Of a stretch of 64,000 nucleotides of DNA, positions 59,269-62,036 are shown in pieces. Position 1 is the stretch's first letter. The number at the start of each line of letters is the position of its first letter. The position numbers were made by a program, and so were the translations under genes. Location of the stretch: assembly GCF_044647545.1 (NCBI RefSeq), contig NZ_CP172818.1; one strand, written 5' to 3'. The notes beneath the pieces were generated by a model. The model did no database searches, was not told where the DNA came from, and saw nothing but the letters and a program-made list of their open reading frames with translations. The DNA is from Escherichia coli. GTDB lineage: Bacteria > Pseudomonadota > Gammaproteobacteria > Enterobacterales > Enterobacteriaceae.

Positions 59269-59345
59269 CGGCACGTAGCGCAGCCTGGTAGCGCACCGTC
59301 ATGGGGTGTCGGGGGTCGGAGGTTCAAATCCTCTCGTGCCGACCA
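59269..59345 (+). tRNA. proL: tRNA-Pro (anticodon GGG)
   Basis: 77-nt cloverleaf CGGCACG...CGTGCCGACCA with anticodon loop AUGGGGU, T-arm GGTTCAAATCC and encoded CCA end. Confidence 0.95.
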
Positions 59346-59360
59346 AAAATCCCAAGAAAA

Positions 59361-59387
59361 AACCAACCATTACGGTTGGTTTTTTTA
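59361..59387 (+). terminator. Rho-independent terminator of proL
   Basis: AACCAACC-ATTAC-GGTTGGTT hairpin followed by TTTTTTT. Confidence 0.85.
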
Positions 59388-59447
59388 TATCTGCAATTAA
59401 TTCGATAAACAGACCGTGACACATCACGGCCTGTTTATTTTCTGTTA

Positions 59448-62036
59448 TCAGAACGTCCAGACCACACCCGCCTGAGTATTCCACGGCGATTCTACCCCTG
59501 CGCCATTGCCATAACTGACTGACAAATGACCGCTTAACGTCGGGGTAAACGATGACCTTATCCCAGCCTGATAAACGCCACGGGTTCCAGCCACATCATT
59601 ATTAAATTTGCCATCGTCATTAACTTTCACCTGGTTAGAATCGGCGTATTCCTGACGTACGGCGGCTTTCAGCCAGGGTTCCAGCGTCGTACCGTTTTGC
59701 AGGTCCATGTGATAGCTTACCGCCGTTCCCGCTTCAGCCCGTAATATGCGGGTATTTCCCACATCCGCGCGCATGCCGTTTGATAACGTGTAGTCCTGAC
59801 CATCTGTGGTAAAGCCGGTAAAGGCCAGATAAGGTCTAACACTCCACAATCCGTCAACCCAACGGAACCCGCTCTCGACATGAGCACCCGCGCCGTTACT
59901 ATTGTAATCGCCAAACGCTGTTGCCCCATTACTCATCTTGCCATGGATGGTGTTGGCAAAACGGTCAACTTTCACCACCCCATCAACATAGGCACCGTTC
60001 TGATGCTCCCAACCGGCATAAGCCCCCAGGGTATAGCTATCGACATTGCCTTTGCCGCCGCGATCAAAACCAATATCAGAATGAGAGTAACCAAAGAACA
60101 AGCCGCGAATTGTACTGCTTTCTTCACGGGAGAAACGGCTATCGATACCGAGCGTCAGCCCCGTCAATGTTTGCTCAAAGCCAGCTCCCGCATCAGTGGT
60201 CACGTTGTTGCGGGTGTTAATTGCCGAACTCCACATCGCCGTATCGTAATTAACGCCTTTTACGCTACCAAGACGCTCACGCACGGTGTCCAGTTCTGCA
60301 TCAAATACCAGCGGTTGTGCTGCCGCCATATTCAGCACATCAGTGGTTGAAGGGGTAATTTGCGCGCGATTCTCTGCCAGACTCCAGCTATGGTTGCCAT
60401 TATCCAGCAAGGTATATTCATACGTACCGATATCAACAACGCCTCCGGCATTGCCCAACGTAAATGCAGCATCACCGCCGCCCGTCGTTACCAGTGTAAG
60501 GCTATCTCCTGCTGCCGGGCTGGCACCGGTGTCCGTAACGAATATTTTGAAATCACCTGTTGCCTGACCGGTGACGTTGAGCTGATCGCTCTGATGATTA
60601 GCCATATCGGTACGCATATAAAAATTGCCGTTTCCCGACAGGGTATTGGTGGTCAACGTAATGAAATTTTCCGCACTTGCCGTCACTGATGAACGAGTCA
60701 CTGGCTCATCCATCATAATCACATTTGCGTCAGACATCGCAAGGTTGGCTAAGTTGAGGAGGGTGTTTTGGTTCGTCGTAGTGATATCGGCAATGATGGT
60801 CCATGAGCTACCATCGAGCGAAACATCCGCTTTGCTGGTATCCACGGCACCATGCGTTCTTAAAGAAGCGCCCTCAGAAACCACGACACTACCCACCAAC
60901 ATAGCGGGTGCATAATTTATTTGCGGCTTCATGACCTCAAGAATGCCATCATTCCCTCTGACTGAAACGTTAACCATCGTGCCAGCCCAGACATTAGCGC
61001 GGCCATTGTTGATAACCATATTTTCAGAGATGGCTTTAGAGGAATACGTGATACTTCCATTCTGATCTGATCGACCGAGATCATACACCGCATTTGCCTG
61101 CACTCTCGTACCAGTATCCTTTCCCAGCGATTGCATAGTGGCATGCTCATCAAGGATAGTGTCAATGGCCTGCGTGTCCTCCATAACAATGAGCCCGGAA
61201 CCATCATCCAGTTCATAATTTTTTGACACACCATCTTTTATACTAAATTGGCCTTTACTGTTTGTACCACTCACTTCCAGCGCATTCGTTGAGACAATTA
61301 ATTTTCCGCCTGCTTTTTTATCAACGCCAGTTGCAGTCCCGCCATCCATAACCTCCAGTAAGCCGCCATTATCCACAGTGGTATTATAAGCGAAGTCATT
61401 TTCTTCAACTCGCAAACTTCCGCCGTTTTCCAACAGCATATTATTAGCAATACCATTCTTGATATCGAACTGACCGAGACGGTTTGTTCCGAATACCTCC
61501 ATGGCCCGCGTGGTTGTTTTAATCGCACCGCCTGCTTTCTGATCTACCGCAAGCGCAAATCCCCCCTCTTTAACCTCCAGTAGTCCTCCCTTTTCGATAG
61601 CGGCAAAGACGGTCCCCCCATCTTTTTCAACGATTAAGCGCCCGCCTTTAATCGTAGGTTCATTCGCCGCGCCATAAACCTGTAGCACACCATTATTGAG
61701 GGTAGTCTGGTTTGCCGCGCCACCCATTTGAACAATTTGATAACCATCATTTAATACTGAGTATTCTGCGGTGCCATTCATTTCAATGTACTGATACCCG
61801 CCGTTAATTTCAGTATTACTACTTATACCAAATTCTTTAATATGCTGTTCTCCGCCAGGATTGATTTTCGTATTATTGGCAGTCCCATAAACCAGCTGGA
61901 TATCTTTTTCCAGGACAACACCATCAACTGTCTCACCATACTCAACTGTTGATGCCAATGCTATGGGTGATAACGCTGTAGCCACCAGAACAGATATTGC
62001 GGAACGACAAAGAGAAACAGAACCAGATTGATGCAT
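59448..62036 (-). CDS. yejO: Adhesin-like autotransporter YejO (passenger with repeats plus C-terminal beta-barrel); uninterrupted here
   Basis: 862 aa; N-terminal signal peptide MHQSGSVSLCRSAISVLVATALSPIALA; repetitive Gly/Asn/Thr-rich passenger; C-terminal barrel ending AGVVWTF. Confidence 0.88.
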   Translation of the reverse strand: MHQSGSVSLCRSAISVLVATALSPIALASTVEYGETVDGVVLEKDIQLVYGTANNTKINPGGEQHIKEFGISSNTEINGGYQYIEMNGTAEYSVLNDGYQIVQMGGAANQTTLNNGVLQVYGAANEPTIKGGRLIVEKDGGTVFAAIEKGGLLEVKEGGFALAVDQKAGGAIKTTTRAMEVFGTNRLGQFDIKNGIANNMLLENGGSLRVEENDFAYNTTVDNGGLLEVMDGGTATGVDKKAGGKLIVSTNALEVSGTNSKGQFSIKDGVSKNYELDDGSGLIVMEDTQAIDTILDEHATMQSLGKDTGTRVQANAVYDLGRSDQNGSITYSSKAISENMVINNGRANVWAGTMVNVSVRGNDGILEVMKPQINYAPAMLVGSVVVSEGASLRTHGAVDTSKADVSLDGSSWTIIADITTTNQNTLLNLANLAMSDANVIMMDEPVTRSSVTASAENFITLTTNTLSGNGNFYMRTDMANHQSDQLNVTGQATGDFKIFVTDTGASPAAGDSLTLVTTGGGDAAFTLGNAGGVVDIGTYEYTLLDNGNHSWSLAENRAQITPSTTDVLNMAAAQPLVFDAELDTVRERLGSVKGVNYDTAMWSSAINTRNNVTTDAGAGFEQTLTGLTLGIDSRFSREESSTIRGLFFGYSHSDIGFDRGGKGNVDSYTLGAYAGWEHQNGAYVDGVVKVDRFANTIHGKMSNGATAFGDYNSNGAGAHVESGFRWVDGLWSVRPYLAFTGFTTDGQDYTLSNGMRADVGNTRILRAEAGTAVSYHMDLQNGTTLEPWLKAAVRQEYADSNQVKVNDDGKFNNDVAGTRGVYQAGIRSSFTPTLSGHLSVSYGNGAGVESPWNTQAGVVWTF

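Follow-up and report, generated by a model that had tools for sequence, protein, structure and literature searches.

The window, a stretch of 64,000 nucleotides from Escherichia coli, contains between the tRNA gene proL and narP one open reading frame of consequence, which is yejO. It is encoded on the minus strand as an uninterrupted frame of 862 codons plus stop with an ATG start codon and is convergent with proL, the 3' end of the tRNA being separated from the yejO stop codon by 102 bp (Table 1). The proL terminator (CCAACC...GGTTGG followed by a T-run, at about 59363-59386) is located in a short spacer that is common to Citrobacter and was therefore placed outside of the yejO segment. Beyond this spacer begins an Escherichia-specific segment, which encompasses a hairpin, yejO and 209 bp of AT-rich upstream sequence; in Citrobacter approximately 33 bp are found in its place. 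The hairpin directly following the yejO stop codon is kept beside yejO in E. albertii and in O111 and is probably the yejO terminator. The right-hand flank is formed by the promoter and leader region of narP, which is conserved with Citrobacter. A search of 58900-62600 against Rfam at a permissive threshold returned the tRNA alone, and no known small RNA or riboswitch was found in the spacers.

Table 1. Features of the proL-yejO-narP locus; positions refer to the window, aa to YejO residues
Feature	Position	Strand	Basis or remark
proL, tRNA-Pro(GGG)	59269-59345	+	ARAGORN; Rfam RF00005, 54.9 bits
Spacer holding the proL terminator hairpin	59346-59400	+	Matches positions 1-52 in the proL-narP spacer of Citrobacter
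Escherichia-specific segment, 2.85 kb	~59401-62245		Bounds from alignment to Citrobacter empty sites
Hairpin directly after the yejO stop codon	59406-59440	-	Terminator-like stem 59414-59429
yejO coding sequence	59448-62036	-	Intact; predicted type Va autotransporter
Translocator, predicted 12-strand beta-barrel, aa 599-861, ending in Phe862	59451-60263	-	PF03797, TIGR01414, AlphaFold
Predicted linker alpha-helix, aa 562-591	60264-60353	-	AlphaFold helix H562-591
Passenger, predicted beta-helix, aa 29-561	60354-61952	-	Pfam, PDB sequence matches, AlphaFold, Foldseek
Predicted signal peptide, aa 1-28	61953-62036	-	MHQSGSVSLCR, SAISVLVATAL, SPIALA/ST; layout read from sequence
Junction of the private 3-nt in-frame deletion	61970-61971	-	Tyr23 codon (TAT) lost
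AT-rich region upstream of yejO	62037-62245		33.5% GC; part of the Escherichia-specific segment
narP promoter and leader region	62246-62355	+	Matches spacer positions 86-205 in Citrobacter

The gene is the ordinary, already-named Escherichia yejO in its uninterrupted form. Its DNA shares 99.9% identity with the FDAARGOS_497 gene that is annotated as 'autotransporter YejO', and the genes of this name located at proL-yejO-narP are 97-99.9% identical to the window gene, with most E. coli at 97-98%. The protein shows 98% identity to the cluster P0002 'autotransporter YejO', a 90%-identity cluster with 16,859 members.

The initial annotation had described an 862-codon yejO encoding a signal peptide, a repetitive passenger and a beta-barrel with terminal phenylalanine, and all of these parts were recovered from the list of reading frames, from Pfam and TIGR01414 matches and from the AlphaFold model. 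Judged from sequence and predicted structure, YejO has the composition of a classical (type Va) autotransporter of the AIDA-I/Ag43-like adhesin type, i.e., a signal peptide, a beta-helix passenger, a linker helix with a 12-strand barrel and a C-terminal aromatic residue. The predicted signal peptide is composed of a charged n-region (R11), a hydrophobic core and a cleavage motif (Table 1), and residues 1-26 are disordered in the AlphaFold model (pLDDT <50). The model, with a mean pLDDT of 84, contains short strands across aa 30-560 and 12 long barrel strands. Within the passenger, two AIDA-type repeats of 74 aa each cover aa 147-296, and aa 430-554 form its pertactin-like C-terminal part. In protein alignment the repeats constitute a tandem duplication with 49% identity (aa 147-222 versus 221-296), which is detectable at the protein level only; a search for tandem repeats in the DNA of yejO returned none. 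Pfam assigned AIDA repeats twice (PF16168, 9.2e-51), Pertactin (PF03212, 3.2e-45) and the Autotransporter beta-domain (PF03797, 2.5e-45), and TIGR01414 matched with 1.3e-111. Among PDB sequences the passenger matched Antigen 43 (Ag43; 7koh, 7.6e-38) and TibA, and in Foldseek searches it was aligned to Ag43 (7koh, 6.7e-20) and to pertactin (1.1e-11). The barrel was matched to the beta-domain of BrkA (3qq2; target TM-score 0.91, rmsd 2.7 Å) and further to EspP and AIDA-I. The protein ends in ...AGVVWTF and thus in an aromatic residue, the signal for outer-membrane insertion.

In K-12 MG1655, the annotation of yejO (b2190) is that of a pseudogene in two fragments with IS5K between them. The element is located after coding nucleotide 67, i.e., in codon 23 within the signal peptide, with TTAT as duplication, and taking IS5K out yields an intact ORF of 863 codons. 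The disruption of the MG1655 gene by IS5, as stated in the initial annotation, is borne out by annotation and alignment, and the window is indeed free of IS sequence. The K-12 lesion has been reported (PMC11005336), and yejO was reported to be missing from ST131 (PMC5654935). Among 5,426 complete E. coli genomes, 357 have the IS5K junction of MG1655. Of 39 genomes sampled at even spacing, 16 had yejO intact at full length and 18 (~46%) carried independent lesions, as estimated from 36 inspected rows; besides IS5, the lesions seen were a frameshift, a nonsense mutation at codon 789 and two large deletions that are nested. At least five kinds of yejO lesion are independent of each other, the IS5K insertion of K-12 being one of them, and the gene is dispensable. 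An intact yejO is nothing special, being found in ~40% of the sampled complete genomes, and the broken K-12 copy is the exception.

The loss of Tyr23 sets the window allele apart. The deletion is positioned exactly at the IS5K target of K-12, TTAT/AT. Tyr23 is present in all 25 other alleles inspected (K-12 and 24 others), none of the 5,426 genomes matches the window across the deletion site, and strain BS-04 carries a 1-nt deletion at the same spot. The deletion shortens the hydrophobic core of the predicted signal peptide, and export could be affected. Both deletions might be read as footprints of imprecise IS5 excision, by which a yejO once knocked out would have regained its frame; this would imply selection to restore YejO and is considered very improbable. 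A plainer explanation is slippage within the short run TTATAT, a sequence that would attract IS5 as well.

By analogy to the autotransporter family, the 28-residue signal peptide would direct YejO for export through Sec, and BAM would insert the 12-strand barrel into the outer membrane with the terminal aromatic residue acting as signal. The linker helix of the AlphaFold model would fill the barrel pore, while the passenger would be threaded out and fold into the beta-helix starting at its pertactin-like C-terminal part, and the helix on the surface would mediate adhesion or cell-cell aggregation. In the literature, no paper characterising the protein and no direct evidence on yejO with H-NS was found; a silencing of yejO would fit with the AT-rich region upstream of it. 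K-12 yejO, IS-disrupted there, was reported to be among the least-expressed genes (PMC10392735). A simple scan for consensus sigma-70 promoters found none upstream of yejO, and as it returned fewer sites than in shuffled sequence, it is no evidence either way on expression.

The initial annotation had considered yejO functional in this strain, as may be the case; an alternative is that the reading frame is intact while being silent or non-functional, i.e., that yejO is cryptic and on its way to a pseudogene with the signal-peptide deletion as first lesion. It is a possibility that we regard as rather unlikely. It would fit with the inactivation of the gene in almost half of the sampled genomes by at least five independent ways, with the absence of a promoter-like site upstream in the above scan, with an AT-rich upstream region as is presumably typical of silenced genes, and with a Tyr23 deletion that is unique among the 5,426 genomes. 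However, nine intact alleles have an overall dN/dS of 0.20, with 0.09 for the C-terminal (barrel) half and a dS of 0.05, and this shows continued purifying selection on intact alleles. Furthermore, the reading frame survives the deletion, as do the n/h/c layout and the ALA/ST cleavage motif, and the protein encoded by the nearest allele, that of FDAARGOS_497, is otherwise identical.

The gene had been described as AT-richer than its neighbours, and this applies to a part of it. The GC content of the whole gene is 48.7% versus 51.4±2.8% in 49 genes of the window (z -0.99; 8 of the 49 are lower), and GC3 is 46.9% versus 55.7±4.9% (z -1.78; four genes are lower). In the first ~300 codons GC and GC3 drop to 44.7% and 38.7%, respectively, whereas the GC3 of the barrel is 53.4%; the Escherichia-specific segment has a GC content of 47.4%. 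By raw codon-usage distance, a measure that depends on length, yejO ranks 32nd of 50 window genes, and by length-matched distance it ranks second (z 5.9), driven by the passenger; composition is therefore given by domain. The atypical composition is limited to the 5' third of the passenger and the upstream spacer, while the barrel is core-like and the GC content of the whole gene is no outlier.

The initial annotation had furthermore placed yejO beside a typical island insertion point and had seen neither an integrase nor a direct repeat of the tRNA 3' end. Both absences hold with up to three mismatches allowed for the repeat: the 3'-terminal 23 or 15 nt of proL matched only the tRNA itself or sequences at chance level, and a generic repeat search over 59000-63100 found no repeats flanking the locus, its matches being short, in two copies and of chance quality. 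There is no integrase at proL-narP in the window, and the integrase of the elements known from proL has no counterpart here. In other strains the 3' end of proL is the attachment site of integrase-bearing elements; this site is unoccupied in the window. Of 5,426 genomes, 4,944 have a continuous proL junction, while about 481 have a split one. The elements in O111:H8 and E. albertii are inserted at the tRNA 3' end with an CTCTCGTGC(C) repeat and leave yejO outside, those of the loci L003 and L021 end in CTCTCGTGC(C), and elements inserted at the tRNA end with yejO outside were also reported before (PMC4924310). The Escherichia-specific segment starts ~55 bp past the tRNA, at ~59401 and beyond the conserved proL terminator, whereas genuine elements sit at the tRNA 3' end, and the framing as a tRNA island does not fit.

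That yejO is the remnant of a classical island targeted to proL, with integrase and direct repeat since eroded, is accordingly held to be improbable. Its closeness to proL, the AT-rich passenger and upstream region, its absence from the empty sites of Citrobacter and the fact that proL is a real attachment site, occupied in about 9% of E. coli genomes, would all be in agreement with such an origin. However, the boundary of the segment lies past the conserved terminator and real elements integrate before it, a repeat of the tRNA end is absent even with three mismatches, and neither E. coli nor the E. albertii locus L102, which is free of an island, shows a remnant of an integrase. Moreover, different small inserts of low GC occupy this spacer in four further Citrobacter species, and a relative of the integrase linked to proL is absent there; this points to a general indel hot spot. 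Thus, yejO was gained long ago as a single gene, directly beyond the proL terminator, and is no recognisable tRNA island.

In two Citrobacter species (loci L010 and L012), proL is followed by narP after 207 bp, with both flanks kept and no remnant of yejO, and the 78 yejM-proL loci from outside Escherichia contain no relative of YejO. In E. albertii L102, an intact yejO of 862 aa is present at the same site; the 3' half of E. albertii yejO shows 87-88% nucleotide identity and is as diverged as yejM (88.9%), which upholds the old acquisition that had been proposed initially. For a donor, a search of representative proteins returned no relative of more than 46% identity outside the YejO cluster. 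Taken together, the sequence comparisons support yejO as a lineage-specific gain, the direction resting on the two clean empty sites and the absence elsewhere, with Escherichia beyond E. coli covered by E. albertii and one cryptic-clade contig ending 1.4 kb after proL. The reverse, an ancestral gene of enteric bacteria that Citrobacter and other genera lost by clean deletion, is most unlikely: autotransporters are often lost and large yejO deletions are common within E. coli, but the gene is absent from all of the 78 loci, both empty sites retain their flanks without a trace of it, and its nearest relatives outside the cluster are at most 46% identical.

Very probably, the locus is explained by an intact type Va autotransporter gene yejO that represents an old, vertically inherited single-gene gain and that has been variably lost across E. 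coli. By comparison of the loci, the 2.85-kb single-gene segment entered the proL-narP spacer before the split of E. coli and E. albertii, beyond the proL terminator and away from the tRNA attachment site, and has descended vertically since. The passenger is fast-evolving and remains AT-rich, while the barrel resembles core DNA. The name and annotation of yejO, its pseudogene status in K-12 and its variable presence across lineages were already published; corrected here are the views that the intact form is uncommon, that a tRNA-att island is present and that the gene is AT-rich beyond its fast-evolving passenger. For a study of YejO a non-K-12 allele such as that of the window is suitable as starting material, with the private Tyr23 deletion to be remembered.

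The elements known from proL, i.e., those in O111:H8 08-4455 and the E. albertii type strain and the gtrIC prophage remnant of S. flexneri 1c, use the tRNA gene that adjoins yejO. In contrast to the yejO segment, they carry genes for an integrase with arm-binding domain, Ash, DUF927, SSB and PerC, or capsid and terminase genes, and they sit between the tRNA and the proL terminator.

Among autotransporters, YejO shares the pertactin-like C-terminal passenger part (PF03212) with pertactin, BrkA and Vag8 of Bordetella, and its barrel fold is near that of BrkA; however, identities are 16-23%, and these proteins belong to other organisms and have other passenger functions. Ag43 (Flu/Cah) is the best match among solved structures by sequence as well as by fold, and both proteins combine a passenger of AIDA-type repeat beta-helix with a 12-strand barrel. 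YejO is shorter, shows ~23% identity to Ag43 in structural alignment, and phase variation and aggregation are known from Ag43. With the Ag43/Cah model NF033177, YejO scored 131.7 bits against an equivalog cut-off of 1200 and is not assigned to this family. The same AIDA repeats (PF16168) occur in the glycosylated adhesins AIDA-I and TibA, and YejO scored 58.6 bits with the model of heptosyltransferase-target repeats TIGR04415, above the cut-off of 30. With the AIDA-I model NF033176 it reached 62.2 bits against a cut-off of 1200, outside of that family, and in contrast to AIDA-I and TibA no heptosyltransferase gene is adjacent to yejO, its neighbours being proL and narP. The closest known system is b2190 of MG1655, the 'adhesin-like autotransporter YejO', which is the same gene at the same site (yejM-proL-yejO-narP) with 97.7% identical nucleotides. 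The C-terminal 407 residues, comprising linker helix and barrel, show 99% protein identity, whereas the passengers are 93% identical, IS5K is found in K-12 only and Tyr23 is absent in the window.

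In the window, yejO is a single uninterrupted ORF beside the tRNA-Pro gene proL, as described in the initial annotation; the two genes converge across a gap of 102 bp. Beyond yejO lies narP, with a divergent spacer of 319 bp. The closest complete genome is that of E. coli FDAARGOS_497 (99.9% identity across 59200-62400), in which the annotated order yejK, yejL, yejM, tRNA-Pro, "autotransporter YejO", narP and ccmH matches the window. The spacer between narP and ccmH contains a single terminator hairpin (AGCCCGATGG...CATCGGGC); in K-12 and E. albertii it consists of approximately 175 bp of palindromic REP-like sequence flanked by two copies of this hairpin, which suggests a deletion through recombination between the hairpin copies.

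Positions in the window of yejO, its surroundings and ORFs of lower GC content
Feature	Position	Strand	Description
ORF	10882-12402		GC 45.0%, lower than yejO
ORF	28414-29073		GC 44.2%, lower than yejO
ORF	31411-32352		GC 46.6%, lower than yejO
ORF	41911-42624		GC 43.8%, lower than yejO
proL	59269-59345	+	tRNA-Pro(GGG) gene
proL-side spacer	59346-59400		aligns to Citrobacter-type spacer positions 1-52, proL terminator hairpin included
Escherichia-specific segment	about 59401-62245		2.85 kb; yejO, its AT-rich upstream 209 bp and a hairpin
yejO	59448-62036	-	single ORF, 862 codons, ATG start
Tyr23 deletion	61970-61971		3 nt, in frame, yejO coding nt 66/67
yejO upstream region	62037-62245		GC 33.5%, atypical
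narP-side spacer	62246-62353		aligns to Citrobacter-type spacer positions 86-205 (narP promoter and leader)
narP start	62356		MPEAT...
narP-ccmH spacer	63004-63035		32 bp

The origin of the gene was analyzed in a comparison set of yejM plus 10 kb of downstream sequence from 80 species genomes, screened for proL, YejO, NarP and CcmH. The linkage of yejM and proL is kept nearly everywhere, and a relative of YejO was found in none of the 78 non-Escherichia loci. In two Citrobacter-type loci narP follows only 207 bp after proL, and the alignments of their spacer to both flanks of yejO define the bounds of the Escherichia-specific segment. An island-free E. albertii locus (L102, its yejM 99.3% identical to that of the type strain) encodes an intact YejO of 862 amino acids (6001-8589) between narP and proL-yejM. 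Nucleotide identity between the E. albertii and E. coli genes is 87-88% in the 3' half, 75-78% in the 5' third and 57-61% in nt 901-1500, compared to 88.9% for yejM. The proteins are 26-56% identical in residues 300-450 and 80-100%, mostly above 90%, in the barrel, a mosaic that suggests either very fast passenger evolution or segment replacement. The shared site and the identity profile indicate that yejO predates the split of E. coli and E. albertii and has since been transmitted vertically, its passenger evolving fast, which upholds the earlier proposal of an old, lineage-specific acquisition. No donor could be named; a search of 1.84 billion representative proteins gave, apart from the YejO cluster itself, no match closer than 46% identity.

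The suggestion that yejO occupies a tRNA insertion site as an island proved wrong. An integrase is absent from the yejO/proL locus of the window, and the initial observation that no direct repeat of the tRNA 3' end is present holds even with three mismatches allowed. Genuine integrase-bearing elements that use proL were found in E. coli O111:H8 08-4455 (L003 1-4000), where the element next to yejO carries genes for RepA helicase, the small terminase and capsid, and in the E. albertii type strain (L021 11913-20200), where an element of 8.3 kb between proL and yejO encodes an integrase with arm-binding domain, Ash, DUF927, SSB, ProQ/FinO and PerC. Both terminate in a copy of the tRNA acceptor end, ...CTCTCGTGC(C), with the proL terminator and yejO directly behind it; they sit at the 3' end of proL, ahead of the terminator. 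In S. flexneri 1c, the gtrIC prophage remnant was reported to be arranged in the same way (PMC4924310). As these elements end before the terminator, yejO lies outside the proL attachment site, which is unoccupied in the window. Of 5,426 complete E. coli genomes, 4,944 have the proL-terminator junction in one piece, and in about 481 it is split. Four further Citrobacter loci (L008, L013, L014 and L017) carry differing inserts of 1.3-3.5 kb and low GC (40-48%) in the proL-narP spacer, and no relative of the integrase linked to proL is among them; the spacer thus looks like a general hot spot at which small gene gains occur. In the cryptic-clade Escherichia sp. MOD1-EC7003 the sequence after proL (L007 11912-13298) resembles neither E. 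coli nor the proL elements of the other loci and is probably another integrated element; yejO is absent from the 1.4 kb between proL and the contig end.

Composition was compared to the 49 other long ORFs of the window (GC 51.4±2.8%, GC3 55.7±4.9%). The whole yejO gene has a GC content of 48.7% (z -0.99, 8 genes lower) and a GC3 of 46.9% (z -1.78, 4 genes lower). Codons 1-300 are atypical (GC 44.7%, GC3 38.7%) and lie far from the pooled window genes in codon usage (distance B 0.381; z 3.7 relative to a length-matched null), whereas the barrel is core-like (GC 52.3%, GC3 53.4%) and the distance of the last 306 codons is ordinary (B 0.181). The AT-richness ascribed to the entire gene was therefore overstated and is limited to the passenger and the promoter region; this gradient recurs in yejO of E. 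albertii. Since several window ORFs have a lower GC content, GC alone cannot single out yejO.

The 5' end of yejO is present in 5,405 of the 5,426 genomes, and at least 80% of a 3.2-kb query is covered at one place in 4,281. Alleles were surveyed in an evenly spaced sample of 39 chromosomal rows, of which 36 were classified by annotation and, for most, also by translation; 27 were examined directly and nine assigned through a shared match pattern (H6 and H8 to IS5; H32, H34, H35, H36, H38 and H39 to large deletions; H31 to the 74-residue deletion).

States of yejO among the 39 sampled rows
State	Lesion	Rows
Full-length intact (863 aa)		16
In-frame deletion (789 aa)	222 bp, exactly one 74-aa repeat	2
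Pseudogene	K-12-type IS5	3
Pseudogene	nonsense codon 789; start codon also mutated in several (ATG to ATA/ATT)	6
Pseudogene	frameshift	1
Pseudogene	nested large deletions (nt 470-1473 or 400-1553, plus 1931-2589)	8
Without class		3

Lesions or repeat loss are carried, among others, by the alleles of retrieved loci L003, L004, L005, L006, L089 and L092. The gene was thus inactivated independently many times in E. coli, and its reported absence from ST131 is consistent with the large-deletion class (PMC5654935). Nine intact alleles give a dN/dS of 0.20 for the gene as a whole (dS about 0.05), with 0.29 for the passenger and 0.09 for the C-terminal half. Where intact, yejO is kept under purifying selection; elsewhere it is lost repeatedly. 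Such retention under selection combined with repeated loss is usual for surface adhesins. In this sample the intact gene is the commonest single state and nothing special to the window strain, which carries an already known gene in an ordinary state.

The statement that K-12 yejO is disrupted by IS5 was correct, as shown by annotation, alignment and the published record (PMC11005336; PMC11677980). MG1655 b2190 is annotated as a pseudogene in two fragments around the IS5 copy IS5K (2288919-2290113), which interrupts the signal peptide in codon 23, behind coding nt 67, and is flanked by the duplication TTAT. Removal of IS5K and one duplication copy restores an intact frame of 863 codons, so that the insertion sequence is the only lesion of K-12 yejO. 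A yejO/IS5 junction query finds a full-length match in exactly 357 of the 5,426 genomes, the same number that shows a split match at this site. Exactly at the IS5K target (TTAT|AT) the window allele reads GCG TTA TCA instead of GCG TTA TAT TCA; the Tyr23 codon is missing, which is why the ORF has 862 rather than 863 codons. Tyr23 is kept in all 25 other alleles read, including that of E. albertii and the otherwise identical one of FDAARGOS_497, and none of the 5,426 genomes matches the window across the site. The loss is most simply explained by slippage in the TTATAT run; a small hot spot of mutation, a footprint of IS5 excision or an assembly error may also be the cause. In strain BS-04 (L099) a single nucleotide is deleted at this position. 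The n/h/c layout and the ALA|ST cleavage motif of the signal peptide are retained in the window.

No characterization of YejO function was found in the searchable literature; a K-12 RNA-seq compendium places yejO with the genes of lowest expression (PMC10392735). Pfam assigns two AIDA repeats (9.2e-51), a Pertactin domain (residues 430-554) and an Autotransporter beta-domain (601-840), and the NCBIfam barrel model TIGR01414 matches with 1.3e-111. The passenger contains a tandem duplication of 74 residues (147-222 versus 221-296, 49% identity), undetectable by repeat search at the nucleotide level. In an AlphaFold model (52 input homologues, mean pLDDT 84) residues 1-26 are disordered, 30-560 form short beta strands, 562-591 a helix and 599-861 twelve long strands; the C-terminus is ...VVWTF. 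Together with the fold matches, YejO therefore shows all sequence and fold features of a classical type Va autotransporter. By analogy to the family, it would be secreted by Sec and then BAM, and the passenger would be threaded out and fold from its pertactin-like end. The nearest solved structures by sequence are Ag43 (7koh, 7.6e-38), TibA, Vag8, the BrkA barrel and pertactin, and YejO scores far below the equivalog cut-offs of 1200 of the NCBIfam Ag43 (131.7 bits) and AIDA-I (62.2 bits) models. In Foldseek comparisons the passenger matches the fold of Ag43 (6.7e-20), and the barrel matches the BrkA beta-domain (target TM-score 0.91, rmsd 2.7 Å), followed by EspP, Hbp, NalP and the AIDA-I transport unit.
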